From NCBI GenBank assembly GCA_964577145.1, contig CAZNXM010000003.1, forward strand, positions 6,186-70,185: 64,000 nt of DNA, read 5' to 3'. Under the pieces are notes generated by a model. It was not told where the DNA came from. It was given only the letters and a program-made list of their open reading frames with translations, and did no database searches. Position numbers and translations under genes: made by a program. This document shows, piece by piece, positions 350 to 28,790 of this stretch. The stretch comes from an uncultured Candidatus Poseidoniales archaeon. Lineage in GTDB: Archaea; Thermoplasmatota; Poseidoniia; Poseidoniales; Poseidoniaceae. How positions within the stretch are numbered: position 1 is the stretch's first letter; each line of letters opens with the position of its first letter.

Positions 350-2071
350 TCACCCTTGATTCTCTACTTCTTCACGGTCGGATTCACCATCGCCATCACT
401 GTCTTCATTATCCGGAGAGTAACCAAGAGCGATTTCCGCTTCATCAGATAACATGTCGCCATCTGCATCGCTAACATCTGCATCTTGGAGTAAATATCTG
501 TGAGCAAGATTCACGTCATCAGCAACTTCGACAAGTCGACCTGTCCAAGTAAGTGTCATGTTTTCGTGAATGGAATCAAGACCGATCGAGTCGAATACGG
601 GGTCGATTAGGATTTTTTGCTGTGAGCCTTCTCTCTGCAAGTAGGTTTCACCCTCAATGTCTACGACGTTACCGGTGATTTTCACTCGCTTATCTATATC
701 ATACCATTCTGGAGCACCTTTGCTCCAGTCGAAGGCTTGTGGTTGTGGAGGGTCACCAACAAGCGTCAAACTATTGACAAATAATTGGAATTCTACCGAA
801 GAAGGAATCCAATTCACACTGACGTTGAGCACTATTGCCTGGCCATCTTCAATCCATCCACTATACATGCCCAAAGGAATCATTGCATCGAATTTCGTGT
901 CCATATTTGGATAGATGCCATCTGCTACGATAATTGCAGTATCCCTATCAGTTTCCATTTGTGATGAGCCATATGCAAAGCCTGAGACAACATATGTGGT
1001 ATTATGAGAGGCATTGATTGTTGAAACAGGATTTTCAGCCAATTGTAGTAGTAAATCTTCTGCGTCATTAACATCGATTAGGTCAACATCACCAGTTAGA
1101 CCAGCATCAATACACCATCCTACATATGTGGTAGACCACAAGAGTCTACCTTTGAATTCAACCCGTTCTCCTTCGTATTCGCTTATGTCCCCAATACCTC
1201 TCAAACAAGCACGGTAGCCGTCAGGGCCAACGATTTCCGTTCCGTTTATCTCACCAACTATCGATACTAAATTGCCAGAAGAATAGGACCAACTCGAAAT
1301 ATCATCAAAGCCAATTTCGGTAGATTCGGGGGTATGGGTGCGTACAATTCGGATCTCTGGTCCCTCTGTATGAAGCGCCCATCGCGCTTCTCTTTGTTCG
1401 TATTGCACAACTGCGGTAATTTCGACCTTCTGACCCGCTTCAAGCTGTTGTCCGGGAGCGGAATGAATGATCAAGCGTATTTGGTGGTCAGAGTTTGCAT
1501 AATTTGGATGGTCGCCAAGGTATAGTGCTGTGAAGGATGAATCAGGTGACACAGCCTTGGTTAGATATCCATTTACGATGAATGAATCACCTGCGAAAGC
1601 CTCTGGATCATTAGCAATAGTTGAGATTCCAATTAGCGGAGTTTCTGGAACATCACTTTCGTCCCACGATAAGGCACCGGCTCCTAAGGATTGAAGCCAT
1701 AATCTTCCTTCGTATTCGATGACGTCACCAGTGGCGGTAACCTTTGTCCCAAGAACGGGGATTTCTCCTGGACGATACCACCTAAGTTCGACAACACCAG
1801 TATCATCTTCGACAATGAGGTCAATACGGTCATCTCCTGAACCATACGGGTCTTCAACCCACGAAATAAGCGTGCCTTCAATCGAAACGACTTCATTTGT
1901 GTATTCGACCAGATTCTTGACTTCAACCAATTCCGGTTCACGAACCATAGCATATGCATTCATTGCTGCCACGAGTAATACCGACAGTGAAAACATCACC
2001 CAGAGGCGCTGTCCACGCAGTTCAGGGGAATCGTCCATGAGCCTATCAAGAACATCGCCAATGCCGCTCAT
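350..2071 (-). CDS. Secreted or membrane-anchored acidic protein of unknown function (N-terminal signal anchor, D/E-rich C-terminus).
   Basis: 573-aa ORF. N-terminal hydrophobic helix LWVMFSLSVLLVAAMNAYAMV, C-terminal SDGDGESDREEVENQG. No recognisable catalytic motif. Confidence 0.55.
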   Translation of the reverse strand: MSGIGDVLDRLMDDSPELRGQRLWVMFSLSVLLVAAMNAYAMVREPELVEVKNLVEYTNEVVSIEGTLISWVEDPYGSGDDRIDLIVEDDTGVVELRWYRPGEIPVLGTKVTATGDVIEYEGRLWLQSLGAGALSWDESDVPETPLIGISTIANDPEAFAGDSFIVNGYLTKAVSPDSSFTALYLGDHPNYANSDHQIRLIIHSAPGQQLEAGQKVEITAVVQYEQREARWALHTEGPEIRIVRTHTPESTEIGFDDISSWSYSSGNLVSIVGEINGTEIVGPDGYRACLRGIGDISEYEGERVEFKGRLLWSTTYVGWCIDAGLTGDVDLIDVNDAEDLLLQLAENPVSTINASHNTTYVVSGFAYGSSQMETDRDTAIIVADGIYPNMDTKFDAMIPLGMYSGWIEDGQAIVLNVSVNWIPSSVEFQLFVNSLTLVGDPPQPQAFDWSKGAPEWYDIDKRVKITGNVVDIEGETYLQREGSQQKILIDPVFDSIGLDSIHENMTLTWTGRLVEVADDVNLAHRYLLQDADVSDADGDMLSDEAEIALGYSPDNEDSDGDGESDREEVENQG

Positions 2072-2124
2072 TGTTTCCCTTAGACACTGTTAGGTACATC
2101 AGTCTGTTTGCGAAAGGGGTTGAT

Positions 2125-3438
2125 ATGGTGGTACCCAAAGCGAGGCTTATGCGAGACCGGGTAATACGTGATGAAATTCATCGCGACATCTTGGTTCCCT
2201 CTCATATTGCAAGGTTGATTGATACACGCGAATTCCAGCGACTGCGTAACATTCAGCAACTCGCAACCTGTCATTATGTGTTTCCTGCAGCAACTCATAA
2301 TCGCTTTGCACACAGCCTTGGGGCATACCATTTGGCCACAGTACTTTGCAACCATTTGAGTGATGTACAGCCGGGAATAATTTCAGCAGATGATGCTGAA
2401 CTAGTTTCTATTGCTGCATTATTGCATGATATTGGTCATCCACCCTTTTCCCATCTACTGGAGAGTCCGAAGGTATTCGCAACATTCCATAGCCACGAAA
2501 AGTGGGGCCAGATGATGCTGGAATCTGATGAAACCGAGATAGGTTCTGCTTTGCGTGAGGTCCTTGGAACCGCAAGAACACAACGTTTGTTTGCACTTTT
2601 TAATGGTGCTTCGGAGTGTAATGGTGAAGTGATTGCACCATTCCTAAAGGAGATTGTTTCGAGCCAATTAGATGTCGACAGAATGGATTACATGATTCGT
2701 GACCAGGCAAATACTGGAGCACAAATAGGCGGTTTTGACAGTGCTAGAGTAATCAGGGCACTTCGTGTAGATGAAGAGGGTCACCTATTCGCAAAGCAAT
2801 GGGGGTTACCGGCTATTGAAGCATATTTGGTGACTCGATATCATATGTATAACCAAGTCTATTTTCACAAGGTGAATCAACTTACTCAAGAGTATTTGGT
2901 GAGGGTCTTATCGCGTGCTAGAGTGCTAGCAGAGAGCGATTCGCTTTCACTTAGTAATTCACTTTCATCAATGCTGACCTCAACTGAGTTAACCGTCAGG
3001 GAATATGCTAGATTAACGGATGCTGATATCAATAGTGCCTTGCTTGATTGGGCAGATCATGAGGATGCGATTCTTTCCGGGTATGCACGAAGGTTGGTCT
3101 CTCGGCGCGATTATCACAAGAGTATTCGGATTGGAGACTTGTCAACAAAAATGATGGACGTAGTTATTCCACGCCTCTTACCAATTGTCGAAGAGGCAGG
3201 ATATGATGAGTCGGACATCATCACCGCTTCGATTCGCAAAAAGGGATACATGCCTTATGCGCAGGGAATAAAGTTGGAAGACGGCCGTGATGTCGTCGAA
3301 CATTCACCATTGATTCAGAGTTTGGTACAACAGTCAGTACATGCTTTGATATTCATTCCAGAAGATGTGAGAGACCATTGTGAGCAGGTTGCAAGGGAAG
3401 TAATCAAGCCGTCACAATCAAGTCTTGCATCCTTCTGA
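2125..3438 (+). CDS. HD-domain phosphohydrolase (dGTPase / dNTP triphosphohydrolase-like).
   Basis: HSLGAYHLA ... LLHDIGHPPFSH metal-binding HD motifs. Start chosen at the ATG at 2125 (MVVPKARLMRDRVIRDEIHRDI), preceded by aggggt. The ORF is open from 2071. Confidence 0.8.
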   Translation: MVVPKARLMRDRVIRDEIHRDILVPSHIARLIDTREFQRLRNIQQLATCHYVFPAATHNRFAHSLGAYHLATVLCNHLSDVQPGIISADDAELVSIAALLHDIGHPPFSHLLESPKVFATFHSHEKWGQMMLESDETEIGSALREVLGTARTQRLFALFNGASECNGEVIAPFLKEIVSSQLDVDRMDYMIRDQANTGAQIGGFDSARVIRALRVDEEGHLFAKQWGLPAIEAYLVTRYHMYNQVYFHKVNQLTQEYLVRVLSRARVLAESDSLSLSNSLSSMLTSTELTVREYARLTDADINSALLDWADHEDAILSGYARRLVSRRDYHKSIRIGDLSTKMMDVVIPRLLPIVEEAGYDESDIITASIRKKGYMPYAQGIKLEDGRDVVEHSPLIQSLVQQSVHALIFIPEDVRDHCEQVAREVIKPSQSSLASF

Positions 3439-3451
3439 GAGTGTTTGCTAC

Positions 3452-3525
3452 GGACCAGTAGCTTAGTTGGTTAGAGCACCTGGCTCATAACCAGGCGGTC
3501 GCGGGTTCAAATCCCCCCTGGTCCA
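3452..3525 (+). tRNA. tRNA-Met (anticodon CAT; G1:C72, so not an initiator; could be elongator Met or Ile2-type CAU).
   Basis: GGACCAG acceptor stem, D-arm GCTT-AGTTGGTTA-GAGC, anticodon stem CCTGG/CCAGG with loop CUCAUAA, T-loop GGTTCAAAT, 3' strand CTGGTCC plus discriminator A. No encoded CCA. Confidence 0.85.
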
Positions 3526-3607
3526 CTTTTCCTTATTTCGAGGTTGATTTGAAGCGGCGACCCAGCGTGAACTTTGCATAAAGATGCAGTAGAACCGTTC
3601 ACGCGAC

Positions 3608-3638
3608 GGTAGCGGGTTCAAATCCCCCCTGGTCCACT
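3608..3638 (+). repeat. 31-nt direct repeat of the tRNA-Met 3' end (T-arm plus acceptor 3' strand), 30/31 identical to 3497..3527. A GCGTGAAC/GTTCACGC hairpin (3565..3604) lies just upstream.
   Basis: GGTAGCGGGTTCAAATCCCCCCTGGTCCACT versus GGTCGCGGGTTCAAATCCCCCCTGGTCCACT in the tRNA. No matching 5' acceptor strand upstream, so it is not a second tRNA. Confidence 0.7.
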
Positions 3639-3923
3639 CTTTATTGCAATGATTGATGCCATTTTTATTAGGCCAAAATTGTTCGAATCTTCGCTACCAA
3701 GCGGGTCTGGATTATCGCCTTCGACGAATAGGCTCCCATTTTTGATTGAAGTAATCCTCTTGAGGCAGGTGACGTCTGGTTTCAGTGGATGTTTGAATAC
3801 TACAATGTCACCAACAGTAACAATATGTTCAGAGAATTCTTGGAATTCAACAATATCTCCATCTTTCAGAGATGGCCACATCGAGTCGCCTTTGACAACT
3901 ACTTTCACGATGCGCGAATCCAT
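3618..3923 (-). CDS. sodX: Ni-SOD maturation protease SodX (S26/S24-type Ser-Lys peptidase).
   Basis: GDSMWPSLKDGDIV serine motif and the LKRIT lysine motif. 101 aa. Overlaps sodN by 19 nt in the same orientation. Its last codons (SGPGGI*) lie inside the tRNA-derived repeat. Confidence 0.7.
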   Translation of the reverse strand: MDSRIVKVVVKGDSMWPSLKDGDIVEFQEFSEHIVTVGDIVVFKHPLKPDVTCLKRITSIKNGSLFVEGDNPDPLGSEDSNNFGLIKMASIIAIKSGPGGI

Positions 3924-4354
3924 GTAATCTCACGGCCTTTCGCACCCCAGAATACTCCATGGATTTCTTCGATTGCATCCATTAGTTCCTGTGCGTGAAC
4001 CTCACTGACTTCGACCTTGCATGCAGAACACAACTTTGCAGCCTTCCAAAACATGTCGTGTAGCCCAGGGTTGGATTCAAGGTGCTGTGGCTTGAAGAAA
4101 TCAGTCCAAAGAACAAGTAATTCATCCTTGCACTTCTGTGCTTCTTCTTCCTTGATTGCAGCATAGCGACTCATGGTGTTCAGATATGCTGCCATTGCCT
4201 GTCCGTCATCGGTTGATGGGCATTGCAAGCCGAGCATTTTCTTGGTCATGGATTGAACGGCTTCTCCAGCGATTCTTGCGCTAGCAGGATCATATACTCC
4301 ACATGGTCCATCACAATGTGCTTCAGCCTCAATAAATTTCGTGTATTCGCTCAT
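3905..4354 (-). CDS. sodN: Nickel superoxide dismutase precursor (SodN) with an N-terminal leader.
   Basis: MSEYTKFIEAEA|HCDGPCGVYDPASARI Ni-hook, later VLWTDFFKPQHLESNPGLHDM. This matches the Streptomyces NiSOD HCDLPCGVYDPAQARI ... VLWSDYFKPPHFEKYPELHQL. Start set at the ATG at 4354, preceded by GGGGAG. The longer ORF to 4483 is probably not translated. Confidence 0.9.
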   Translation of the reverse strand: MSEYTKFIEAEAHCDGPCGVYDPASARIAGEAVQSMTKKMLGLQCPSTDDGQAMAAYLNTMSRYAAIKEEEAQKCKDELLVLWTDFFKPQHLESNPGLHDMFWKAAKLCSACKVEVSEVHAQELMDAIEEIHGVFWGAKGREITWIRAS

Positions 4355-4527
4355 GAATAACTCCCCAGTAATCACTCGATGAAGTCCCGGTTCATGAATG
4401 TGTGCTTTGGTGACGTAATAGTTGTGCTGAGGCCCGGTTGAATGCCGTACTGTTCGCCTTTTTGTCAAGGCACGGTCCCACAATAGTTATGAGGGACGCG
4501 AAGGTGGAGTGTATCATAGGTGTAACT

Positions 4528-5472
4528 ATGAAGGCAATCCGACGCTCTCTATTCCTTCTTGCAATCTACATGGCAAGCATGCTAATTGTAGCAACTCCAG
4601 CTGCTGCACAGGTGTCTGTACCAGCGGTTGACTTACAATGTATTTCCCCTAACCCGAGTGGTGCTGTAGAAGTTCCGGTTTATCCAGGTGCTTCGCTAAC
4701 AGGTTATGCAAACTGTAAGGTTTCCAATCCGAACTCCTATGTTGAGCGTATCGAGATTCAGGTAAGTGCTGACGGTCTTGTTGTCGCAGCGCCCGGTACT
4801 ATTACCGTCGGACCTAATGGAGAGTCGGAATTCCAGGTCACTGTTGGAGCAGACCAGCGTATGACAATGGGTAAGCGTAACCTCATGGTAAACGCCCGTG
4901 TTGTAGAGGCAAACGGTGCACCGCCGCCTAATATTGCAGAATCTCAGACCTCGATGATTATCTCGATTCTTCAGTTCAGCAGACTACAGGTTGAGGCAGT
5001 TGAGCCTTTCCTTCAGTTGAATCCTAAGACAGACCACAACTTCGAATTCAAGGTTTACAATCAAGGTAACTGGGCTGACAAGTTCAAGGTCGGAGTTACA
5101 GTAGAATCCCGTGACAAACTCGAAGCAGCAGGCTTCCAATTATCGATGCCAGCAGTAGCAGTTGAGATCGAAGGAATGGCAGCACCAATGAAGGTCCGTG
5201 TCATGACCCGCACTCCAAAGAATCAGGGATGGACTGACGAGTACTACACTCTTGAATTCCAAGCAGAGTCCGAGTTCTCATGCAGATACGAAACAACAGG
5301 ATGTAACTCAATGACACAGATGATTACCATCTATGTCCGTGGAGTTTACCTTCCCGGCTTTGAATTGATTCCAACTCTCTCAATGGTTGCATTAGCAGCC
5401 GCTGTCCTCGTTCGACGTGGCGAAGATGAGGATGAAGAAGGCGAGTGGCGTGAAGCCGCTCCCGGAATCTAG
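4528..5472 (+). CDS. Secreted protein with signal peptide and a C-terminal TM anchor plus acidic tail; CARDB/DUF11-like beta-sandwich motif.
   Basis: MKAIRRSLFLLAIYMASMLIVATPAAAQ signal, VYNQGNWADKFKV motif, C-terminal LSMVALAAAVLVRRGEDEDEEGEW. Confidence 0.6.
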   Translation: MKAIRRSLFLLAIYMASMLIVATPAAAQVSVPAVDLQCISPNPSGAVEVPVYPGASLTGYANCKVSNPNSYVERIEIQVSADGLVVAAPGTITVGPNGESEFQVTVGADQRMTMGKRNLMVNARVVEANGAPPPNIAESQTSMIISILQFSRLQVEAVEPFLQLNPKTDHNFEFKVYNQGNWADKFKVGVTVESRDKLEAAGFQLSMPAVAVEIEGMAAPMKVRVMTRTPKNQGWTDEYYTLEFQAESEFSCRYETTGCNSMTQMITIYVRGVYLPGFELIPTLSMVALAAAVLVRRGEDEDEEGEWREAAPGI

Positions 5473-10928: not shown

Positions 10929-13900
10929 ATGTCGAACAATAATGGCAACCAAAACGGCGTGCCGAATGGGATGCTTGGGTGGCTAATCGCCCCCCTTGCA
11001 GTTCTAGTCGCAATCGCCGCAAACCTGATTGGTGACTTCGGTCTCAATTTGGATCTCGATGGAATGACACCGTTCGTAGCAATTATCGTCGCTGCGATCT
11101 TAGGAACTGCACCACGCACAATTCGTGAGAAAGCAGACATCACATTGCCAACACAGTACATCTCCCTCCTCGTACTAATCGTCGCAATTGTTGCTTCAGA
11201 AGGTGCTGCAATGCTATCCGGTTCTAATCTGGTTGGCTTGTTATTCTTCATCACGATGTTTGCAGGACACATTCTCGATACTCGTGGTCGACACGAGTGG
11301 AATACCGTGATGGTATTCACAATTGTAGGACTACTGTTTGCACTTATCGCTGCAGGCGATTATGCTTCAACAGGCGCTACATACGTTCTTGACGGACAAG
11401 AAATCGAGCGAACTTCCGCATGGCAGGAAGCTATCGGTTTCGTATTCTTTAACATGCTAACGCTCATGGTTGTACTCGGTTTCTTAGCCGCAGTTCTAAC
11501 CCGTGGAGTACTTACCCCTGAGAGCGAAGACGGATGGTTTGGATACATTCCTTCATTTGATGGATATTACAACAAGAAGACTTTGCCCTTGCAACTCGCA
11601 CTCTTGGTGTGGGCTGCATCGCATGCTGCTGTTCTATGGTACTTCTTCGGTTCTGGGGATTTGAACATTCTCGCAATCTATACCGATGATGCATACACTG
11701 GATATGTTGGTTATTGGCCTGCATTACTAACCGGTGTTTTTGCACTTATTGTTTCGTGGATGTGCGCTGAGCGCTGGTTCACTCGTGCAATGTTCATCGG
11801 TTCAATGTGGATTCTTTACGTCGTATCCTCGCTATATGAGCAAGGGCATTGGACTAATGAGAACTTCGAGCGTAGTTGGGCTGTATGGATTTGGTTCGGA
11901 ATCACCTTTGCTATTGGAGTGGTAATTTACTGGTTCAGTACTCATGAGAGTTACGGTGGATGGATGATTCGTGAATTGCACGAGCCTAGCGCTGCACGCG
12001 TATTCTGGTCCAATCACTGGGCAGGAATCATGACTGTTGCTGCATTCTTAACTGCACTTGCAATCAGGATTCAGTGGTATGCTGTTCCATCGATGAACTC
12101 CTATGGAATCGATTCATGGGACATGACCGGTGGTTCTGACCCGTGGTACATGAAGCGCGTTGTCGACTATATCATTGTAGAAAATGCGCATCTCATATTC
12201 GATGCAGATCGCAACTATCCAGTTGGAGGTATCAATCCACGTCCGCCTCTCTTTACTTGGTCGATTGCACTTGTTGGAATGATTATTGCACCATTGGCTA
12301 ACGTAAGTACTGAAGAAGGAGTCTGGTGGTCAATCCTTGCACTTCCTGCAATATTTGGCGCACTAACTGTCTTCCCAATGGCTGCAATGACACGTGATAA
12401 CTTCGGCAAGGGTGCTGGAGTAATCGCAGCTTGGTTAATCGCATTCATGCCAACCCATGTGCAGAAGAGTACCTGGGGAATGGCAGACCACGATTCATTC
12501 GTAATGCTGTTCATGGTTGCTGCATTCATGTTCTATCTACGCGCAGTCAAACTGGGTGGAGATGAACGCTTGGTGCGTAATGTCAATGCAAGTATACCTT
12601 CAATGCTCAACGCGATGGGTGCTGTTCTAAGGCAGCGTCGTGCTGCTTCTGGCAATGCAATCGCTTCAGGTGTTTGTTTTGCTATCGTTGCATTGGGATG
12701 GAAAGGATTCGTTTACGGTCCTGCAATTCTATTCCTTGCATACTCTGCACAAGTTGCAATGAATATGTTCCGTCGCCGTGACAGTACAATTCTTTCAACA
12801 TTGAACATTCTAATGCTTGGAACAATCTTCCTGATGGTCATTCCATTCTATGGTCACCCACAGTTGGATTTGGTTCTAAACGCAACAGGATTGCAGCCAA
12901 TGGTATTCATCGGTGGCTTCACAGTGGCAATCACTTGGATTACTACTGGATTCCGCGACAAGCCATGGTTACTTGTATTGGGTTCACTCTTCTTTGGACT
13001 CGGTGCATTCCTAGGATTGCTCTATCTCTTACAGTCGATGGATATTTCCAATGCTTGGAATGTTCTAACCACTGGAAGTGGTTATTTCAGTAAGGACAAG
13101 ATCTTCGGCACAATTGCTGAGGCAAGTGCCCCAAGCCGTGGTCAACTATTCGCAAGTTATGGGCCAATTGTATTCGTTCTTGCTATTATCATGGGATTCC
13201 TCGCTCTATGGGATGGATTCGTAAAGAAAAACTCAACACACCTCGTTCTCGGAATGTGGGTTCTTGTTGCTTCTTACATGGCATGGTCAGCTGGCAGATT
13301 CCTGTTCAACGCTGCACCAGCAATGGCCATCATGGGTTCATGGGGAATCGTCGCACTTTGGAGAGCCAGCGGTGCTGGAAAGATGTCCAAGGAATGGAGA
13401 CGAATGGGAATACGTACTCCTGGTGAGCGAATATCCAATGCTCGTCGCGCAGTATGGCGAACACCTCAATTCAGTGCAATTGGACTTATTCTGGTACTAT
13501 TGGTGAGTCAACATGCTACCTACGGCCTAGATGCTGCAATACCAGGTAGTTCTCGACATGAAGGGAACATGGATGAAACTCTGTACAATGTTATTCCAGA
13601 CATCATGCGCTGGAATGACATGGGATTCTCATTGTTAGATGATTCCGAATACGATCAGGACACAGGTCGCTGGTACCTCGGTAGTTTCGGTTCAGGTTTC
13701 AACGACCAAGGATGGAATATGGCCTATGATTGGCTTGATGAACAGGACCAAGAAATGGCTTATTCTGACCGTCCAGCATTCGTAAGTTGGTGGGATTATG
13801 GTTTCCAAGCACTTGAAACCGGTTCACACCCTTCAGTTTCCGATAACTTCCAGTCTGGAATCCCTGCTACAGGTAATATGCTTCTAGCACGAAATCAAGA

Positions 13901-16900
13901 TGACCTTGTTGCAATGTTCGTTTGGAGATTATCCGAGGGTGACCTCAAATACTCTGGAGATGGTGAACATACAGGTTCTTTCGAATCAACTCTCAAGAGT
14001 CATCTATCTACTGCAGAGGTCAATGAATTCATCGCAATTCAGACAGACCTCGACTCAGAGATGGTAAAAGCACGTTCCTTTGAGGTAGTTCAAACTAATC
14101 AGGAAGTGACAATGGCAGCAGGTACTGTATTGTCTGAGGGTCTGCTTACAAACGGAGATACTGTTTGGAAGATTTATGATTCTGGCGACCTTGTTCCCTG
14201 TGAATCTACAGAGGAATCTCCAGATGATTGTCTAGGGGAGGCATTTACTGATTTCAGTGATGCTAACACCACCTTCAACAGTCGTATTCGTTCTACAAAG
14301 GACACACTGTTTGAAACAACACACTACATCTTTGGGGACTACTGGTACACTAGCGACCTAATCGAGGAATTCGATTCGGTTAGTACATCTATTCACCGTA
14401 AGAATTCCGGAATTGCACTAGTAACTCAGTTATTGATTGGAACATTGGATAGTAGTGAACTAAACGATCTCTATGTAGACTTGATGGATAACTCCGTGTA
14501 TTCTGTTCAGAATTACGAAGGTGCACCCGGTGAAACAATTACTCGTGACCACGAGATACGATACTTTGCTGTCGACAACCGTCTGTATCCGAGAGCAGGA
14601 AAATACAGTAGTGATTACACTGGTGGAAACCCATCAGGAATTTTCGCTGCACCGACTATCCTTTCAGGACAGGACTTTAGCACTTTTATGATTGAAACCT
14701 ATGAGACACGACGTGGCGAATTCAGTGATGAGATGTCACGTGAGGAATTCGAGACTGAGATGCAAAAAGATGCAATTAATCAGCAGTCTGGTGCTCAGAT
14801 TGACCCACTACAGCTGGTTGACATTCGCATTGATCACACCTCAGATTTCTTTGAGACAATGCTCGCAAGAGCATATGTTGGATATGGTGCATCAGACCTT
14901 GGTTTCGCAACTAATGAGCAGCCAGGACAGCACTTCGGACAGTCGGGTACACCTGAAACAATGATGGCAAATGCCCTTCCACTACCAGGTGCAATGATGA
15001 ATCACTTTGTTATCGCAAATTGGTATGATGCAAATGATGCTGACAATACGATTAGTCAAGCAAATACTCTTGTAAAGATTCTGAAGTATTATCCAGGTGC
15101 AGAAATCGGTGGTACAGTTACCATGTCTGATGATGGACAACCTCTTGGAGATGTTCGAATTCTAATCGAGCGTGATGCATTCTCTGGTGAGGATAATACC
15201 GATCTAGATTCTGATACCTATTGGATTCCAATTGGTTATACTGATGCGGATGAAAATGGTGAGTGGTCCTATACAGTTCCAGCAGGCCGTATTCGAGTCT
15301 CTGCATATGCAGGAGAATATGATGATACTGCGGCAAAGGATGTTTTCCGAAGCGGTGAATATACCGAAACTCTTGCAGATTTCCTTACAGATGCAAATGA
15401 TGACCGAGATACAAACCTAATCACATCTTTACTAGGAAAGGTTGCAAACATGACCTGGATGGGTGAGTCGACAAATAATATCAGTGGACCAGTTGCAAAC
15501 CGCGATAGCGAGTTCACAGGTTCATACGATATCGAAGTTGATAGTAGCGGTGTTTCTGGAACAGTATTGTGGTCGGGACACGAATCCTTTAACGACCTAC
15601 CACTAGACAATACTACCTTTATTCTTAGGAGTATTTGGGCACTGACAGACAACTACACCCTAGAGACCACATCTGGCTCATTCAGTTCTGAAACTAGCCG
15701 AATAATGCAGGGTACCGGCGAGGTAACCTTCGTTGACGACGGCAGATTTGAATCTGAGGGAATGGCAATCGTACGTGATTTCACTGGAACCTTTGCACGT
15801 GATATTGCTGATGAACGCTCATACACATCCAATGGTTCGTGGACCGGTGCTGGACACATTGTTGCAACTTGGATTAACATGACTGCAGCAGATTGTTTAG
15901 TTGAGGAGAACGAGACAGTTCTTCCAAGTTATGTTGATGAAGATAATCATACGATATATGACACGATTTGTCTTACCGATGAGGAAAACACCTACTTCTT
16001 TGCTGGAACGGTTTCTGCCAATGGTAGAATGACTGCTGATGGAACGGTTTCCTTAGTAAAGAATCTTGATGATGAGACCTTTGAGGGCGCTGGTATCTTT
16101 TTGGGAGAGGGTACTGCAAATGGAACTGGACTATTCATTGGAGCTGGAGATTTCTCCGGTGATATGGTCAAGCCCGGTTCATTCTTCATGACTGGATTAA
16201 TACCCGGTACTTACAACATGATTGCACACCTTGACAATGGAAAGGAAGTATTGCTTCCAGAACCTCTAATTGTCGATGTCAAACCAACATTCGATATTCA
16301 GATGACCCTGCCAGGCAGTATTTTCGAAGACATATTGTACGATGGTACGGGTGAGAGATTGAATGACACTATTATCGAATTAGTCGATATGGGACTTGGC
16401 GAAGAAAGCGTAGTCACCATTGTCACTGATGAGAATGGTTCATTCTCACACGGGCCTCTTGCAAAGGGCGATTACATGTGGCGTGTTGATGTTGACCAAG
16501 ACGGTTGGTATGAGCGTGAAGTTCCACTAACTGTTGGTGATGAATCGGCTAATCTGACCCTAGAGGTATCGATTCCAACGAAGAGAGATTTGACTATCCA
16601 ATTGGAAGCAGTTGATCCATTAGACCCATTAAATCCACTAATAGATGTGACAAATAGAACTCTTGTATTCACAAATATTCTGTCAACCGATGCTAATCCA
16701 TATGTTACTAACGCAACCTCTGATGAAAATGGTGTAGTATACATTGAAATCGACAGAGGAGAGTGGATTGTTTCCGATGAATCCGATGAACAATTTGTAT
16801 TGTGGGATGAAATTAATGTGAATACTGATGACCTAAACCTCACAATGAGTTATGCTGAGAGTGTTTGGGTAAATGGTACAGTATATGCAGTACCTGAGAA

Positions 16901-19900
16901 TATTGTCGAATCTGTTGGAGGCGTGGAAAACATGACTGACGAAATGCTTAGCAACCATGTTGCGAGCAATGTCCTAACTGTTGAGGCTAGGTCTGGTTCT
17001 ATTATGCTGAGTGACGTAACTGACATGAATGGAACTTATTCACTACGTCTACCAGGCAGTAGGGTCTTCCATATTACAGCAGATGCTTACATCAATAGTG
17101 AATCTTACAATGGCGGCCATCTATTGCTCGATGCAAGTAATGGCGTACCTGCAATATTCCTACATGAAACAACAGTTGTACGTGGTTCAGTCTGGCTCAA
17201 TGAAGCTGGTGATAATGGCACATCGTGGGGCGAAGGAGTTCCTGGTTCAGAAGGTGCTGAAGTAATCGCCACAAATTCAGAAGGATTGGAATGGAGGGTC
17301 GAACTTACTGAGATTGGTGATTTCACAATTTCCCTTCAACAGGATAATTGGACTTTTACTATCTCAAATGAGGATATGAATGTTGCACCATTAGATATTG
17401 AAATTCTTGAAGAAACCCCCGCTCCGCTTGAATTAATAGCAGATCCGAACCCTGTGAACCTTACATTCCATGTATTTGTGGATACTAACGACGATAGAGT
17501 TTGGGAGAATGGAACACATGTTCAGTTAGAATTCAGTTTGATACCGGTGAGTGACTTTGGTACACAGTACAATGTTACTGCTGCTAATTATAATACTGAA
17601 ACCAATGAACTCAACATCACTCTTGATGTTGGTGAATACAGTATTGTGATGCCACAAATAAGTCCACGCGATGAGAATGCAACTGATTACATCCTCAATG
17701 GAGACTTCCCACCGGGATTAGATCTTGGATTAGCAGGTTCTGGGGATCCAGTTCCAATCATTCTTGATGCGGCTTGGTTGACTACTGGAACCGTACTAGA
17801 GGACGATGGAGTAACTCCAATGGATAATTCCAGTTTCTGGCTACGTAGCGTGGATGACGAAGAATTCCATATGGTTACAACCGATGAAAACGGAACATTC
17901 GCAGATTACTTGCCACAAGGTGAGTGGGTTGTTGAAGTTGCACCATATGAATCTAGTAGCAATGTTACAGAGATTTACCGCGGCATGATAACACTCGATG
18001 AGAATTCATCTGTTCGTACTGATCTTCAATTCATGACGAGACCTGCATTGGTTATCGATATGCAATTGCAGGAGGTTTTGACTGGAGTCAATATCACTGC
18101 TACACGAGTTACTGCAGTCAGTCAGGATGGTCTGGGCAATGTCAGTCTAGGGCCTTCGGATAATTCCGGTATGATTACTGAAGTCCTAATGCCAGGTGCA
18201 TGGACACTTTCACTTAACAAGTCAAACAGTATTGAACAGTGGATGCTAGACGAAGGCGTGTACAATTTTGATACAAGCACTGCAGTCAATGGAACATGGG
18301 ACCTTGGTATTGTTGAAGTTGAGAAATTAGTGAGCATTGGTGGTAAGGTCTTCTGGGACCTCGATGCTGATGATATTGCAGATTCAAGCGAAGGAATTGC
18401 AGATGTAAATGTCACAATTCTTGGAGGCTCGGTTAATGAGACTCTAATCACAGATGAAAATGGTGTTTGGAAAATGTTTGTTCCAATCCGTACCAATTAC
18501 ACAATTGATGTGTACAAGGATGGATTCGCAGGTGCAACTTACATGGAAGGCAATGAATCGATGTATGTAGTAAATGATACACACGAAAGCCGTGATATTG
18601 AATTGGTTGCAGGAGTGGTATCTGTTTCTGGAACTGTTACAGATATCGCACCTCAGGGACGACTTGAGAATGCAAGCGTAACTCTCTATCCAGTTATTGG
18701 AATTGAAAGAGATAGCGTAGTTGCACAAACCTCATTCGATAATGGCACTCTTACTTGGACAGCTTCTACTGCTCCAGGTGATTGGGTCGTTGTCGTCACT
18801 GGAACTGATATCACCGATAACGGTGGAGGAGTTGCAGTCGGTTTGCTTCAAGCATCTGTACAAGATGGAGCAACTCTTGACCTAGTTATGTCATATGGAG
18901 GACGAATGATCATCGATTCAAGTTGGTCGTCTTTCGATAATATTGTTGAATACAATGCTGGAGATCTCGATGAGACCGTACGTGTCGAAATTGATCTTAG
19001 TGAAGGTATTGAATGGTACATCGATTTCGATGAGAATGGAGAATTCGACATCATTCTACCAACAGGCACTGTCCAACTAATCTCAGAGTTCACCAATATT
19101 CAGCATGAAATGGGATTGGAGATGGAGTACAATGCTGCTCGTAACATCGACAACCAGGTTGGACTTGATTCCAAGACTCTTGAATTCACTCGCAGAACAA
19201 ATTCCGATATGGAAATTGGACTTGCGAGCATTGAATCCGGTGCAACTGCAGGTGAAGGAAACCTTGAGTTGAACTCAATCACAAATGACGAGAATGGCTA
19301 TGAGCAAATCGAAGTCACTCTTTCAATGGATTATGATGGAACCGAGGTCACAGATATCTTCACAGTATCTGGCGGAGTATCAGGTGCACAGGATCAGGAC
19401 CTATGGGTAGTAGAATTCTACAATGCTTCTAGTGAAGAATGGGAAACCACAATCGATGTAAGCATGGGTGTTGGAACCAATAGTACCGATGAAGCAAATA
19501 TTCTGAATGAGACTGTATTGGCAAGATTTACTCTACCGTTACAGAATGAATCAAACAGCTATGATGATGGGCACAGCCTAAACATACGAATGGTATCTGA
19601 CCAAGGTGGATTATCCGAGATTGGATTCTCTGTATTTGTTGAACAGCAATATCAAATCACATTGAGCGATTCACCTGAGGCAATCGGTGTTGCTGATGGC
19701 GGTGAAACACTAGTAACAGTTGATTTGTTCAACGAAGGAAATGGTGACGATAGCATCGAGATTTCGGCAAGTCTAGAAGAAGAGTGTATCGATTGGCAGG
19801 TTACTCCTGCGAATTCAACCATTACCATTGCATCCGGAAATGGCCGTACACAGTCTTTCACTGTGCATGCGCCAGACAATGCTACTGTCACAAGTTGTGA

Positions 19901-20411
19901 CTTGACAATTGTCGCCGATTCTGAAGGTGCTGTAGAGCAGTTGTCGACCGGTACTGAAGTGAAGGTTGCAGTTGCGACCTTGAGTTTCGTACAGGGACAA
20001 GAGAGATCAGATATTGAAGCAAATGAGGCTGGTGTTATTTCCATCATGGTAGAGAACACAGGATTCCTAACTGCAACTGATGTCATCGTGTATCTCGAAG
20101 GAACCCATGGAACTGATTATCCAGCCGAACAGGTGACGATTACTGTTCCAGCAGAGGGAGTTGCTACAGCAGTATTCGACCACGATGGATTTGTTCCAGG
20201 ACCTCAGAGATTCAAGACGTACATGACCATTATTGGAACTCCTGTTGACAGTACTGGACCTGACCATGAGGACACATTCGAGATTGAATTCTACAATGTT
20301 GCCGATGAGGAAAAGGGTGGCGGAGTTATCTATGTTGTAGCAGTTCTAGGAGCCCTCGTACTCTTCGGCGGATACAAGACTGCTCGCAAGGGTTCCAAGG
20401 CTCGCTTCTGA
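10929..20411 (+). CDS. aglB: Giant oligosaccharyltransferase AglB/STT3 fusion. N-terminal ~350-aa extra polytopic domain, STT3 core (EL1 DPWY...D.D at aa ~404, WWDYG at aa 954-958), ~2200-aa extracellular C-terminal region of repeated CarboxypepD_reg-like (TDENG) and Ig-like domains, and a C-terminal TM helix.
   Basis: Single uninterrupted 3160-aa ORF. FVSWWDYGFQ at nt 13788-13802. SDPWYMKRVVDYIIVENAHLIFDADRNYPVGGINPRPPLF first loop. Repeated IVTDENGSF / VTTDENGTF / ITDENGVW motifs. C-terminal GGGVIYVVAVLGALVLFGGYKTARKGSKARF. Confidence 0.75.
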   Translation: MSNNNGNQNGVPNGMLGWLIAPLAVLVAIAANLIGDFGLNLDLDGMTPFVAIIVAAILGTAPRTIREKADITLPTQYISLLVLIVAIVASEGAAMLSGSNLVGLLFFITMFAGHILDTRGRHEWNTVMVFTIVGLLFALIAAGDYASTGATYVLDGQEIERTSAWQEAIGFVFFNMLTLMVVLGFLAAVLTRGVLTPESEDGWFGYIPSFDGYYNKKTLPLQLALLVWAASHAAVLWYFFGSGDLNILAIYTDDAYTGYVGYWPALLTGVFALIVSWMCAERWFTRAMFIGSMWILYVVSSLYEQGHWTNENFERSWAVWIWFGITFAIGVVIYWFSTHESYGGWMIRELHEPSAARVFWSNHWAGIMTVAAFLTALAIRIQWYAVPSMNSYGIDSWDMTGGSDPWYMKRVVDYIIVENAHLIFDADRNYPVGGINPRPPLFTWSIALVGMIIAPLANVSTEEGVWWSILALPAIFGALTVFPMAAMTRDNFGKGAGVIAAWLIAFMPTHVQKSTWGMADHDSFVMLFMVAAFMFYLRAVKLGGDERLVRNVNASIPSMLNAMGAVLRQRRAASGNAIASGVCFAIVALGWKGFVYGPAILFLAYSAQVAMNMFRRRDSTILSTLNILMLGTIFLMVIPFYGHPQLDLVLNATGLQPMVFIGGFTVAITWITTGFRDKPWLLVLGSLFFGLGAFLGLLYLLQSMDISNAWNVLTTGSGYFSKDKIFGTIAEASAPSRGQLFASYGPIVFVLAIIMGFLALWDGFVKKNSTHLVLGMWVLVASYMAWSAGRFLFNAAPAMAIMGSWGIVALWRASGAGKMSKEWRRMGIRTPGERISNARRAVWRTPQFSAIGLILVLLVSQHATYGLDAAIPGSSRHEGNMDETLYNVIPDIMRWNDMGFSLLDDSEYDQDTGRWYLGSFGSGFNDQGWNMAYDWLDEQDQEMAYSDRPAFVSWWDYGFQALETGSHPSVSDNFQSGIPATGNMLLARNQDDLVAMFVWRLSEGDLKYSGDGEHTGSFESTLKSHLSTAEVNEFIAIQTDLDSEMVKARSFEVVQTNQEVTMAAGTVLSEGLLTNGDTVWKIYDSGDLVPCESTEESPDDCLGEAFTDFSDANTTFNSRIRSTKDTLFETTHYIFGDYWYTSDLIEEFDSVSTSIHRKNSGIALVTQLLIGTLDSSELNDLYVDLMDNSVYSVQNYEGAPGETITRDHEIRYFAVDNRLYPRAGKYSSDYTGGNPSGIFAAPTILSGQDFSTFMIETYETRRGEFSDEMSREEFETEMQKDAINQQSGAQIDPLQLVDIRIDHTSDFFETMLARAYVGYGASDLGFATNEQPGQHFGQSGTPETMMANALPLPGAMMNHFVIANWYDANDADNTISQANTLVKILKYYPGAEIGGTVTMSDDGQPLGDVRILIERDAFSGEDNTDLDSDTYWIPIGYTDADENGEWSYTVPAGRIRVSAYAGEYDDTAAKDVFRSGEYTETLADFLTDANDDRDTNLITSLLGKVANMTWMGESTNNISGPVANRDSEFTGSYDIEVDSSGVSGTVLWSGHESFNDLPLDNTTFILRSIWALTDNYTLETTSGSFSSETSRIMQGTGEVTFVDDGRFESEGMAIVRDFTGTFARDIADERSYTSNGSWTGAGHIVATWINMTAADCLVEENETVLPSYVDEDNHTIYDTICLTDEENTYFFAGTVSANGRMTADGTVSLVKNLDDETFEGAGIFLGEGTANGTGLFIGAGDFSGDMVKPGSFFMTGLIPGTYNMIAHLDNGKEVLLPEPLIVDVKPTFDIQMTLPGSIFEDILYDGTGERLNDTIIELVDMGLGEESVVTIVTDENGSFSHGPLAKGDYMWRVDVDQDGWYEREVPLTVGDESANLTLEVSIPTKRDLTIQLEAVDPLDPLNPLIDVTNRTLVFTNILSTDANPYVTNATSDENGVVYIEIDRGEWIVSDESDEQFVLWDEINVNTDDLNLTMSYAESVWVNGTVYAVPENIVESVGGVENMTDEMLSNHVASNVLTVEARSGSIMLSDVTDMNGTYSLRLPGSRVFHITADAYINSESYNGGHLLLDASNGVPAIFLHETTVVRGSVWLNEAGDNGTSWGEGVPGSEGAEVIATNSEGLEWRVELTEIGDFTISLQQDNWTFTISNEDMNVAPLDIEILEETPAPLELIADPNPVNLTFHVFVDTNDDRVWENGTHVQLEFSLIPVSDFGTQYNVTAANYNTETNELNITLDVGEYSIVMPQISPRDENATDYILNGDFPPGLDLGLAGSGDPVPIILDAAWLTTGTVLEDDGVTPMDNSSFWLRSVDDEEFHMVTTDENGTFADYLPQGEWVVEVAPYESSSNVTEIYRGMITLDENSSVRTDLQFMTRPALVIDMQLQEVLTGVNITATRVTAVSQDGLGNVSLGPSDNSGMITEVLMPGAWTLSLNKSNSIEQWMLDEGVYNFDTSTAVNGTWDLGIVEVEKLVSIGGKVFWDLDADDIADSSEGIADVNVTILGGSVNETLITDENGVWKMFVPIRTNYTIDVYKDGFAGATYMEGNESMYVVNDTHESRDIELVAGVVSVSGTVTDIAPQGRLENASVTLYPVIGIERDSVVAQTSFDNGTLTWTASTAPGDWVVVVTGTDITDNGGGVAVGLLQASVQDGATLDLVMSYGGRMIIDSSWSSFDNIVEYNAGDLDETVRVEIDLSEGIEWYIDFDENGEFDIILPTGTVQLISEFTNIQHEMGLEMEYNAARNIDNQVGLDSKTLEFTRRTNSDMEIGLASIESGATAGEGNLELNSITNDENGYEQIEVTLSMDYDGTEVTDIFTVSGGVSGAQDQDLWVVEFYNASSEEWETTIDVSMGVGTNSTDEANILNETVLARFTLPLQNESNSYDDGHSLNIRMVSDQGGLSEIGFSVFVEQQYQITLSDSPEAIGVADGGETLVTVDLFNEGNGDDSIEISASLEEECIDWQVTPANSTITIASGNGRTQSFTVHAPDNATVTSCDLTIVADSEGAVEQLSTGTEVKVAVATLSFVQGQERSDIEANEAGVISIMVENTGFLTATDVIVYLEGTHGTDYPAEQVTITVPAEGVATAVFDHDGFVPGPQRFKTYMTIIGTPVDSTGPDHEDTFEIEFYNVADEEKGGGVIYVVAVLGALVLFGGYKTARKGSKARF

Positions 20412-26249: not shown

Positions 26250-28790
26250 GTGGGCGTTGATGATATGGTCGCGAAACCTAAACCAGGGGTACAAGAGAGA
26301 ATACTTCTCCACCTTTCTGATTTTTCGGATTTTATGAATTCGGTTGAGGTTCCGTTCGCACTTTCGCAGATGGGAATTGCAAACGCAGTTGCGATTGCGA
26401 GGTCAAATGTACCTAGGGCAATCGCTGGTCTCAAGGATCAAGGCCTGCTAATTGAGCGGCAAGCACACGTTCAAGGAGTCAGCCGTAAAAGGAAGGCATA
26501 TTTCTTGACCGATACGGGGATGGTACTGGCAGATGAGACTTGGAAGAGACTCCGTGATTTCTCACTGCGGTGCATTTTACCCGATGGTCAAACGATTAGT
26601 TCTACCTTAGGTGAAGTGCAAGACCAACTTCCATTTTCGATGAGGCCGGTTGATGTCATTAGGTATCTGGATGATAATGGAGTTCTCGATGTTCGCTCAT
26701 TATCGGCAGAGCTTGTTGAGAGGGACCTCTCAAAACATGTTGAGAAGCAATTGGTTTCAAGTCTAGGAGATTTACCACGGCTCCGCCATTTCTATGGCAG
26801 ATCTCAGGAACTCGAGAATATGGTCAATCTCTTGGAAGCGAGGTCAACAACATTGATGATTCCCGGAATTGCTGGAATTGGAAAAACAGCAATGGCTGCA
26901 AAAATCATTGAATCATTTATGCATCGCCGTAATCTTCTCTATCATAGATGTCAAGACTGGGATGGTAGCAGGGCACTGTTCGAAAATATTGCTGATTGGT
27001 TATCCAATATCGGTGACCCAATGCTTTCGGAATATATCTCTGCCACACCGGTGCCAAAACCTGGTGATGCAGCTGATTTAATCATTGACGCACTCGATAA
27101 TACTCCGGCACTAATCGTGATTGATGATTATCACAAAGTGAGTGACAAGGCATTGCATCAGATGGTACAAGCATTGTCTAGAGGCCTTGTTGATAGCGAA
27201 GGTGATGTAGGACTGGTGATTTTCTCGCGTTCATTCAAGCCTGTAGTGCCAATGAAGGATGCAGAGGGGAAAATTGTGAGCCTTGTTCTCCCATTGGAAG
27301 GCCTTGATCAAGATTCATGTAGAAGTCTTCTCTCCACTTTCGAAGATTTGGATAATGAGACATTGCTATACATTCATTCCCTATCAAGAGGCCACCCCTT
27401 AGTTCTGGAATTAATCAACCGCGGTGCTTCGGCAGGTGCATTCCATGAAACATTAGAGAATTATGTAAATATCGAGATTTTCTCTAAATTGAGTGGGGAA
27501 CAGAAACGCCTCCTTGGAGTTCTTTCTGTTTTCCGTGAACCTATTCCATTAGCAGCACTTACCGAGCAGGATTTGAACATTGATGAATTAGATTCCCTCG
27601 TTGAGGCTGGACTTGCTAGGCAAGCTGATTCTGATGCATATGACGTACACGATTTGATTCGTGAGTTCTTACTTCAGAGTTTAGACCACCAGACGAAAGA
27701 AGAATTGCACAATAAGGCTGTTCTGTGGTATGAAAAGCAGGGCAGTGGGCCACTGATTGCTATGGAATTGATCTACCATTTAATCAGTAGTTCTCGGCAT
27801 GAGGACGCTGGTGAAATCATTGTTCAACAAGGAAGAAATCTGATCAAAGAAGGGTACATAGAATTACTTGGATTGTTAGAAGCGATTGACTTGTCGGAGA
27901 TTCAAGAGGAGAATGCTTGCAGAATTGATTGTCTCAAGGGCGAGGTTCTTTCACTACTGGGGAGATTTGCTGAGGCTGAATCTGCATTCAATTCAGCCCG
28001 TGCTCCTGCAGAAGCAGCGGGAATCCAAGATGTAATTGCCGACCTTCATTCCAACCTTGCAGATATCGCATTAAAGCGTGGTGAAACTGAATCTTCATTG
28101 ACAATGCATCGTAATGCGCTTGAATTATTCATTCAAATGGGTGATGCAGTCGGCGCTGCACGCTCTTACAATAATATGGGCTACATCATGCGTCGCGGTG
28201 GAGATAAAGTCAAGGCTCTTGAGGCATATGGTGAGGTTGAAGCAATACTTTCAGATGATAGTTCTGAGGAACTTATTCCAGCACAATTGATTCTTGCTCG
28301 AGCACTGATTGACCTTGGCGAAGTAGACCGAGCCAGAGACCACGCTCTCAATGCGTACGAAGCATCGTCTGATGGTGCTGACCTGATTCTACACGCAAGG
28401 TCGCGAGCAGTTCTTGGTAGATACTATGCCAAGGTAGGAGACTCAGACCTAGCATTGCATCACTATTCGGACGCACTAGAGGTAATGGGAGAGGCAGGAG
28501 ACCCTCATGCACTTGTTGAAGTCAGTATTCTTCTCGGTGAAGTTCTACAGGATAGTGGGCGTGTTGATGAGGCACTCGAGAGATATCGCGCAGCCCTTCT
28601 AATCGCCGAAGGAAACGATCTAAGGATGCAAATCGGAGAGTTGCTTTCACGTCTTGGTGGTGTAGCTCCCGACCGGCAGAGACGAATGGAATATCTTCAA
28701 AGAGCACTTTCGGTATTCAGAGAATTAGGTGCACAAGCAAGGATGCGTGAGGTCCAGATGATGGTTCACACCGCCGTGATGGGACGCTGA
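26250..28790 (+). CDS. STAND-class NTPase with an N-terminal winged-helix domain, NB-ARC-like P-loop ATPase and C-terminal TPR repeats (putative signal-transducing regulator).
   Basis: wHTH ALSQMGIANAVAIARSNVPRAIAGLKDQGLLIE. Walker A LMIPGIAGIGKTAMA. Walker B ALIVIDDYHKV. C-terminal TPR-like repeats (ARSYNNMGYIMRRGGDKVKALEAY ...). GTG at 26250 or ATG at 26265 as start. Confidence 0.75.
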   Translation: MGVDDMVAKPKPGVQERILLHLSDFSDFMNSVEVPFALSQMGIANAVAIARSNVPRAIAGLKDQGLLIERQAHVQGVSRKRKAYFLTDTGMVLADETWKRLRDFSLRCILPDGQTISSTLGEVQDQLPFSMRPVDVIRYLDDNGVLDVRSLSAELVERDLSKHVEKQLVSSLGDLPRLRHFYGRSQELENMVNLLEARSTTLMIPGIAGIGKTAMAAKIIESFMHRRNLLYHRCQDWDGSRALFENIADWLSNIGDPMLSEYISATPVPKPGDAADLIIDALDNTPALIVIDDYHKVSDKALHQMVQALSRGLVDSEGDVGLVIFSRSFKPVVPMKDAEGKIVSLVLPLEGLDQDSCRSLLSTFEDLDNETLLYIHSLSRGHPLVLELINRGASAGAFHETLENYVNIEIFSKLSGEQKRLLGVLSVFREPIPLAALTEQDLNIDELDSLVEAGLARQADSDAYDVHDLIREFLLQSLDHQTKEELHNKAVLWYEKQGSGPLIAMELIYHLISSSRHEDAGEIIVQQGRNLIKEGYIELLGLLEAIDLSEIQEENACRIDCLKGEVLSLLGRFAEAESAFNSARAPAEAAGIQDVIADLHSNLADIALKRGETESSLTMHRNALELFIQMGDAVGAARSYNNMGYIMRRGGDKVKALEAYGEVEAILSDDSSEELIPAQLILARALIDLGEVDRARDHALNAYEASSDGADLILHARSRAVLGRYYAKVGDSDLALHHYSDALEVMGEAGDPHALVEVSILLGEVLQDSGRVDEALERYRAALLIAEGNDLRMQIGELLSRLGGVAPDRQRRMEYLQRALSVFRELGAQARMREVQMMVHTAVMGR

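Follow-up and report, generated by a model that had tools for sequence, protein, structure and literature searches.

Genes and features at the locus

The window, which here means the whole 64-kb stretch of DNA that was analysed, comes from a Poseidoniaceae (MGIIa) archaeon. A tRNA-Met gene is found between an HD-domain phosphohydrolase gene and the convergent pair sodX-sodN, and the space between the tRNA gene and sodX contains a hairpin and a second copy of the tRNA 3' end. The features, in order of their start positions, are the following:

2071-3438, plus strand: HD-domain phosphohydrolase gene (Pfam HD and HD_assoc_2), the conserved left anchor, syntenic in 160 related loci
3452-3525/6, plus strand: intact tRNA-Met(CAT) gene (ARAGORN; Rfam tRNA model, 69.3 bits, E=1.2e-14)
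3496-3530, plus strand: repeat copy 1 (variable loop, T-arm, acceptor 3' strand and 5 nt of trailer), within the working tRNA
3528-3545, plus strand: T-rich trailer that follows the tRNA; no other part of the insert varies as much, and it is wholly different between haplotypes A and B (see below)
3528-3638, no strand assigned: the ~111-bp insertion overall, from alignments with L001, L082, L162 and L301-306
3546-3562, plus strand: inverted degenerate copy of the T-arm (GATTTGAAGCGGCGACC versus the reverse complement GATTTGAACCCGCGACC, 15/17)
3565-3604, no strand assigned: hairpin with an outer 8-bp stem (3565-3572 / 3597-3604) and a 24-nt loop, directly before copy 2
3607-3641, plus strand: repeat copy 2, not a tRNA (33/35 versus copy 1)
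3618-3923, minus strand: sodX, NiSOD maturation peptidase of the S26 family, 101 aa (Peptidase_S26/S24; Peptidase_S26 at 1.8e-11)
3905-4354, minus strand: sodN, nickel superoxide dismutase (Pfam Sod_Ni, 3.3e-44)

SodN begins with a 12-aa propeptide (MSEYTKFIEAEA) that is directly followed by the nickel hook (HCDGPCGVY); the assignment of the pair as a NiSOD system is based on a Sod_Ni domain with an HCxxPCGxY hook after a propeptide, together with the adjoining S26-type peptidase. Related loci (80 from genomes and 80 from metagenomes) were retrieved by a search with the upstream HD-domain protein, and nearly all of the 80 genome loci are labelled Poseidoniaceae or other Marine Group II archaeal MAGs. 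The conserved gene order is a 573-aa protein, HD, tRNA-Met, sodX and sodN (where present), g4438, g5548, g7116, CDP-archaeol synthase and PurD. Among the 80 genome loci, sodX-sodN is found only in L001-L021 and L071 (it is also found in many metagenome contigs), and where present in the genome loci it invariably adjoins the tRNA 3' end. A synteny comparison with relatives lacking sodN, which the earlier note on this DNA had put forward, proved informative: in L022-L080 the cassette is absent at the same tRNA, g4438 follows the tRNA directly, and the order is otherwise identical. Both flanks of the cassette are housekeeping genes with family-wide synteny. By these sequence comparisons, the sodX-sodN pair forms a block that is specific to one clade and located at the tRNA 3' end.

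Several smaller observations concern the same genes. Between genomes about 12% apart, almost no variation is seen in the final ~60 nt of the HD gene and in the 13-nt spacer after it (window 3380-3451); the tRNA promoter probably lies in this segment, within the coding region. sodX diverges by 13–15% and sodN by 8–9% in the same genome pairs, so that sodX changes faster than its neighbours; relaxed constraint, or recombination close to the junction, may be the cause. In P0084 (an ENA contig, in the cluster of P0002), SodX lacks a stop and reads on into the hairpin (...SGPGGFEPATVA, 107 aa), and the SodX tail evidently tolerates extension. An exact look-up of the window SodX in the contig index gave no match, though P0069 (NCBI, an 84.9-kb contig) is identical.

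The tRNA gene and the repeat of its 3' end

The anticodon CAT of the tRNA at 3452-3525 is of the elongator Met or Ile2 type, and the tRNA sequence of the window is 100% identical in L001, L081, L082 and L162, where it was compared. The last 31 nt of the tRNA (3497-3527) occur again at 3608-3638, 111 nt downstream, with one mismatch; this repeat had been reported in the earlier note, and the repeat search widens it to a 35-nt pair (3496-3530 and 3607-3641, 33/35 identical) at the same spacing of 111. Shuffles of the window gave not one match to the tRNA 3' 31-mer, which places the repeat far beyond chance, and no third copy of the repeat exists within the 64-kb window with up to three mismatches allowed. 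In the Rfam alignment, the T-stem of the tRNA (window 3500-3516) is marked as having a C:C mismatch, and copy 2 has the same bases.

Read on the minus strand, bases 3618-3638 of copy 2 encode the last six codons of sodX and its stop (...SGPGGI*), again in agreement with what had been reported. Copy 2 has drifted in other strains, where the SodX tail shows P to L, P to S, G to R and I to V changes and loss of the stop. Judged from its sequence, copy 2 acts as coding or neutral DNA and not as a tRNA, and it varies where a tRNA could not.

The repeat is near common k-mer sizes, and the minimum-free-energy fold of a 194-nt read-through pairs the 5' end of the tRNA with copy 2, both of which would fit an assembly artefact or a second or split tRNA (with its 3' half supplied in trans, or containing an intron). 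Such an explanation is barely credible. The same structure is found in 15 other contigs from several assemblers and samples, and the insert structure is not an artefact of assembly, since it is the same in independent JGI, ENA and Logan assemblies. As for a split tRNA, copy 1 already completes a high-scoring tRNA, ARAGORN and Rfam make no second call, no acceptor 5' strand is seen before copy 2 and no bulge-helix-bulge is apparent (both by eye), and copy 2 gathers stem-breaking changes in other strains.

Structure of the insert

Compared with L001, the window has exactly 111 extra bases. They consist of ~80 nt of novel sequence and the 31-35-nt duplicate of the tRNA 3' end, and the exact limits of the insertion (3528-3638) are ambiguous within the repeat. 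The inverted T-arm piece has a Smith-Waterman score of 24, as compared to a shuffle maximum of 20 (the score was reached by 0/500 shuffles), and it pairs with copy 2 in the minimum-free-energy fold. No credible ORF is found in the 80 nt between the repeats. The hairpin that had been reported before the copy is indeed there, with an 8-bp stem and a 24-nt loop. The arms of its outer stem are GCGTGAAC (3565-3572) and GTTCACGC (3597-3604), and the loop contains an inner 5-bp stem (3575-3579 / 3584-3588). Across the window-group haplotypes the outer stem is invariant, and in L106 (a separate lineage, described below) its pairing is kept via two double changes; the inner tetraloop is variable (AAAG, GAAG, AATG, AATA) and its stem is retained. 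The plus-strand fold of 3527-3645 has z=-3.2, and that of the tRNA plus the insert has z=-4.3.

These structural features raise the possibility that the insert persists chiefly through its function as a structured module, of RNA or DNA, between convergent genes, with its origin being secondary (such a role would fit either of the origins discussed below). It could act as a 3'-end or terminator hairpin for the sodX mRNA, or as an insulator that shields the tRNA from sodX transcription or translation. The outer 8-bp stem is paired in 6/6 distinct sequences (L106 included, with its two double-sided changes), the stems are retained although the loops vary, both plus-strand folds are stable relative to shuffles (the z values above), and the type A insert is invariant between lineages 13% apart. 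However, the minus-strand fold, which has the sense of the sodX mRNA, is no better than shuffles (z=-0.9); an Rfam scan at E<=1 over 3000-4600 returned the tRNA alone and no match for the insert; on direct reading of the minus strand, the sodX stop has no oligo-T tract after it; changes in the inverted T-arm piece are not compensated in copy 2; the covariation comes from a single lineage; and the insert is wholly absent from healthy lineages. We consider this reading improbable, and the role of the hairpin putative, because the minus-strand fold is unremarkable and healthy lineages do without the insert.

Several other classes of element were considered by eye and dropped: C/D-box and H/ACA sRNAs, integron attC sites, primer-binding sites, and casposon or CRISPR-type structures. 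In each case diagnostic boxes, spacing or target-duplication lengths do not fit.

Relatives in which sodX overlaps the tRNA gene

L001 and L082 share ~88% DNA identity with the window and have a single tRNA copy. In both, sodX enters the tRNA gene by 19-21 nt on the opposite strand and ends in the tail GGPGGI*, with the TGA stop in the antisense T-loop. The same tail, GGPGGI*, is read from the tRNA itself in L301-306, which have the same tRNA and no insert, and in L002 and L083, also with a single tRNA copy, the tail GPGGT* is read antisense from the real tRNA. Because single-copy relatives read the tail antisense from the tRNA, the GPGGI tail came originally from the tRNA gene and not from an att copy. 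In the window the tRNA is intact in copy 1 and the SodX tail is in copy 2, and therefore the two genes no longer overlap. In 34 other loci the sodX stop is 0-20 nt from the tRNA. A different overlap is seen in L111 and L112, where sodX overlaps the tRNA by 42 nt in another frame (tail GLEPTTARL*) and reaches the anticodon arm.

A later insertion of ~111 bp very probably separated two overlapping genes, the tRNA gene and sodX. Before it, sodX would have run 19-21 nt into the tRNA gene on the opposite strand, taking six codons and its stop from it; the insertion would have brought a second copy of the T-arm and acceptor 3' strand, and copy 2 would then have been free to drift. The comparison with relatives is the basis for the overlap, for its undoing and for the drift of copy 2, and parsimony places the overlap before the duplication.

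The same relatives bear on the model in the earlier note, in which the repeat was taken as the attR/attL scar of an integrating element that carried sodN-sodX and whose att copy supplied the C-terminus of SodX. The cassette is clade-specific and lies exactly at the tRNA 3' end, and the repeat, as a duplicate of a tRNA 3' end, is att-like; this part of the claim stands. The repeat is not, however, a sodN-sodX boundary, since only 80 nt separate the two copies, with the cassette beyond them, which is the wrong geometry for an att boundary of the cassette. Many relatives have sodX-sodN without the duplicate and read the same tail from the tRNA: the L001 clade, L002 and L083 read GPGG[I/T]* from the real tRNA, so the att copy was not the source of the sodX 3' end, and L001, L002, L083 and L301 contradict the model. 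The other traces it predicted are missing as well. A further copy of the 31-mer at a far island boundary is found neither in the 64-kb window nor beyond sodN, the sodN-g4438 spacer holds no remnant, there is no integrase among 34 ORFs of the window, and the GC content of the cassette (0.46-0.48) is like that of its flanks. A recurrent 11-mer in the sodN-g4438 spacer had been a candidate for an attR-like remnant, and turned out to be the ribosome-binding region of sodN. Arrival of the cassette on such an element is thus very improbable as an explanation of the repeat; the insertion would be younger than the sodX-sodN cassette and would have had no part in its arrival. Annotators should not take the second copy as evidence that NiSOD arrived on an island.

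Distribution and haplotypes of the insert

Besides the window, the insert is carried by 15 contigs (JGI, ENA and Logan), namely L081 (JGI), L161 and L163 (ENA), the P0063 strain group (L284, L287, L290-292), L293, L294-299 and L300. L001, L082 and L301-306 lack it; these form one clade, and their sources are an NCBI MAG, JGI and ENA k141 contigs. Three Logan contigs (L162, L285 and L289) also lack it, and we treated these as ambiguous: insert-bearing contigs encode an identical SodX, the repeat in those strains is perfect over 32 nt, and an assembly at k=31 (which we take to be the setting used for Logan) could collapse such a repeat. Contigs L286 and L288 break at the repeat. These three 'empty' alleles from k=31 assemblies, and the possibility of chimeric metagenome contigs, are among the points that count against a later insertion of att-type origin.

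There are two insert haplotypes, A and B. Most of the difference between them is in the ~18-nt trailer, and they resemble each other in the inverted T-arm piece, the hairpin and copy 2. Insert and flanks differ greatly in divergence in the comparisons below, all of which involve metagenome contigs, where chimeric joins are possible at conserved segments. Between the window and L081 the insert has 0/118 differences, while HD differs by 12.5% and sodX by 13.7%; the calculated chance of 80 unchanged bases at 13% divergence is ~1e-5. Conversely, L163 (type A) and L300 (type B) have 23/118 differences in the insert and 0.7% in sodX. The sodN genes of L300 (B), L163 (A) and L301 (empty) differ by 0.2–0.7%, and all three states (A, B and empty) are found in one species-level clade, with HD differences of at most 3.2% (L300, L001, L082 and L301; the L163 contig is too short to be included) and sodN differences of 0.2–2.6%. 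L300, whose insert carries variants of its own, matches one and the same clade on both flanks. The right-hand limit of the shared sequence is the end of copy 2, after which every strain has its own flank of the host type (CCACTC or CCACCT). Overall, the insert is near-identical between lineages 10–15% apart. Since its history is decoupled from that of its flanks and the shared sequence ends at copy 2, the insert appears to have been gained, lost or exchanged as a discrete unit.

Other insertions at the same tRNA 3' end

Two further, independent tiny insertions were found at this site. L087 (2199-2286) has an 88-nt insertion at the tRNA 3' end with a 16-17-nt direct repeat (CCCTCCGGGTCCACTT), as compared to L089 and L085; its HD gene matches that of L089 by 100% over 1,224 nt, and the inserted sequence is unrelated to the insert of the window. 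L106 (1396-1570) is a separate lineage whose tRNA has the same 3' sequence. It contains a 60-nt direct repeat, perfect and at a spacing of 115 nt, and its repeat region includes a near-perfect inverted copy of the tRNA 3' end. The hairpin of L106, GTGCGAAC-N24-GTTCGCAC, has the 8+24+8 geometry of the window, with two stem pairs changed on both sides. By eye, an apparent degenerate T-arm precedes the perfect repeat in both L087 and L106 (the likeness in L087 is given without a chance estimate).

We also note that in a subclade a 203-aa scramblase-family gene (PF03803) lies between the same tRNA-Met and sodX (L005:7516-8127, L012:2810-3421 and at least 22 other related loci). Since this gene was inserted there, the tRNA-sodX junction is an indel hot spot for whole genes too. 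In the loci compared, the 3' end of tRNA-Met thus appears as a recurrent insertion site: in these abundant uncultured marine Poseidoniaceae it has received the sodX-sodN cassette, the scramblase-family gene and three kinds of tiny insert.

No source of the three inserts (window, L087 and L106) was found elsewhere in the window or in the collected related loci. A hairpin covariance model run over 1.05 Mb of related loci matched the window and L106 alone; the hairpin module therefore does not represent a multi-copy family. Local flanks as a source of the insert gave no significant result in a tandem copy test, most of the insert (hairpin included) being unmatched, and the sequences after copy 1 and after copy 2 show a weak colinear alignment that is not significant.

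Searches for an integrase, a donor and a free element

None of the 34 window ORFs that were scanned belongs to an integrase or recombinase family, and none of about 190 related loci contains a full-length element or a large insertion at this tRNA. The searches for an attP site or a free element used exact matching and limited collections. In IMG/VR, the tRNA 3' 25-mer, which is expected in any attP for this tRNA sequence type, gave 0 hits by exact matching, as did the window hairpin, a degenerate hairpin-plus-T-loop pattern, and the L087 and L106 inserts; no autonomous element with the same att specificity was found there. A degenerate pattern for the tRNA 3' end gave more than 120 hits in IMG/VR and was uninformative, nearly all of them being complete phage tRNA genes; the few partial tRNA 3' copies among them differ from the Poseidoniaceae sequence. 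The insert had no blastn match in phage and plasmid collections. Integrase-bearing elements that integrate next to tRNA genes have been reported in Poseidoniaceae (bioRxiv 10.1101/2025.08.03.668216) and are a lead only: the supplements of this paper, on Charybdis, do not name the targeted tRNA, and the clade P elements serve as a literature lead.

Origin of the insert

The insert may be the product of att-type site-specific recombination at the tRNA 3' end, a mechanism to which we give slightly less than an even chance. It would be a tiny non-autonomous att-flanked unit or relic, like the cis-mobilisable relics of integrative elements, and could be lost through recombination between its own direct repeats. 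It would spread either by means of an integrase that a helper element supplies in trans or by homologous exchange (of short patches) across the invariant tRNA. A free or tandem form would carry an attP-type junction running from the hairpin end through the copy into the trailer (...GTTCACGCGACGGT[A/C]GCGGGTTCAAATCCCCCCTGGTCCACTTTTCCTTATTTCG...). The hairpin could, speculatively, serve as a spacer or a 3'-end structure between the two convergent genes. Several points stand against an att-type origin: there is no integrase or other cargo between the repeats or in the 34 window ORFs, no full-length element in about 190 loci, and no attP in the IMG/VR, phage and plasmid collections; moreover, 111 bp is very small for circularisation and re-integration, and the insert is single-copy. 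The combined statement, i.e., that a later insertion ended the overlap of the tRNA and sodX and that it arose by an att-type mechanism, we regard as evenly balanced.

The main rival is a replication or repair accident at the tRNA gene, in which a fork stalls at the highly transcribed tRNA and template switching duplicates its 3' end together with a short templated or filler segment; the product would then spread by ordinary homologous recombination, with no recombinase involved. The inverted copy of the adjacent T-arm within the insert is what fold-back switching would give, and the repeat length differs among events (16-17, 31-35 and 60 nt). The empty searches for an integrase or donor element in the window, IMG/VR and the phage and plasmid collections point in the same direction, as does the weak (not significant) colinear alignment after the two copies. 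On the other hand, most of the insert, including the hairpin, matches nothing local, and the degenerate T-arm seen by eye before the repeat in L087 and L106 is hard to explain as decay if the duplications are recent. Three events at one site, two of them with identical hairpin geometry, suggest a directed process, and the near-identity of type A across lineages 10–15% apart would need repeated exchange of very short patches. We consider such an accident fairly unlikely.

Comparison with known systems

Returning to the att-type origin, the insert has much in common with the attL/attR scars that tyrosine integrases leave in tRNA genes. Its repeat consists of the T-arm and acceptor 3' strand, the tRNA is regenerated intact, copy 2 follows a short distance downstream and is mismatched at its 5' edge, relatives carry precise empty-site alleles (L001, L082, L301-306), and the same tRNA has been hit repeatedly. 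Unlike such scars, the window repeats enclose only ~80 nt without an integrase or ORF, no full-length or free element with the window att was found, and the repeat length varies from 16 to 60 nt among events.

CIMEs, described in Streptococcus, are att-flanked, gene-poor derivatives of integrative elements that are moved in trans by a related element. The insert resembles them in its att-like flanking repeats, in having no recombinase of its own, in being patchy among close strains and in being near-identical in diverged hosts; spread independent of the flanks, which is characteristic of CIMEs, is also seen for the insert (in metagenome contigs). It differs from CIMEs in being about ten to hundred times smaller, in its archaeal host, in having no known helper, and in that its mobilisation is putative.

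MITEs and other small palindromic elements are similar in size (about 90-115 nt), in having an internal hairpin and in their imperfect inverted ends (here the T-arm piece versus copy 2). In contrast to MITEs, the insert is single-copy in the window and in 1.05 Mb of related loci and is bound to one specific tRNA site, its 31-35-nt duplication is far longer than the target-site duplications made by transposases, and its inverted piece matches at only 15/17 positions. The locus can also be compared with overlapping convergent genes that are split by duplication: the shared 19-21 nt are now present twice, one copy per gene, and the sodX copy then diverges. Unlike a simple tandem duplication, the one in the window came with ~80 nt of foreign-looking structured sequence.

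The 111-, 88- and 115-bp units could also represent a kind of miniature site-specific mobile insert not described before in archaea (att-flanked, hairpin-bearing and gene-less, and also acting as a spacer), which would jump, or be transferred, from lineage to lineage at a single tRNA gene; we consider this unlikely. If the tiny inserts are indeed moved in trans by an integrase, they would be among the smallest site-specific mobile units known and would provide a handle on the integrative elements of these archaea. Apart from mobility, the locus offers a clean case from nature in which a tRNA gene, read antisense, provides the final codons of a protein gene, and closely related strains show this overlap between the tRNA and sodX undone via duplication of the shared segment.

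Other features of the window

The window also contains three very large ORFs at 10929-20411, 33498-39197 and 39299-44662 (3160, 1899 and 1787 aa, respectively), which probably encode giant surface proteins. The second of these has repeated GATGG...GATGG units (33.9-38.0 kb), presumably corresponding to Asp/Gly-rich motifs. A STAND NTPase-TPR protein is encoded at 26250-28790.
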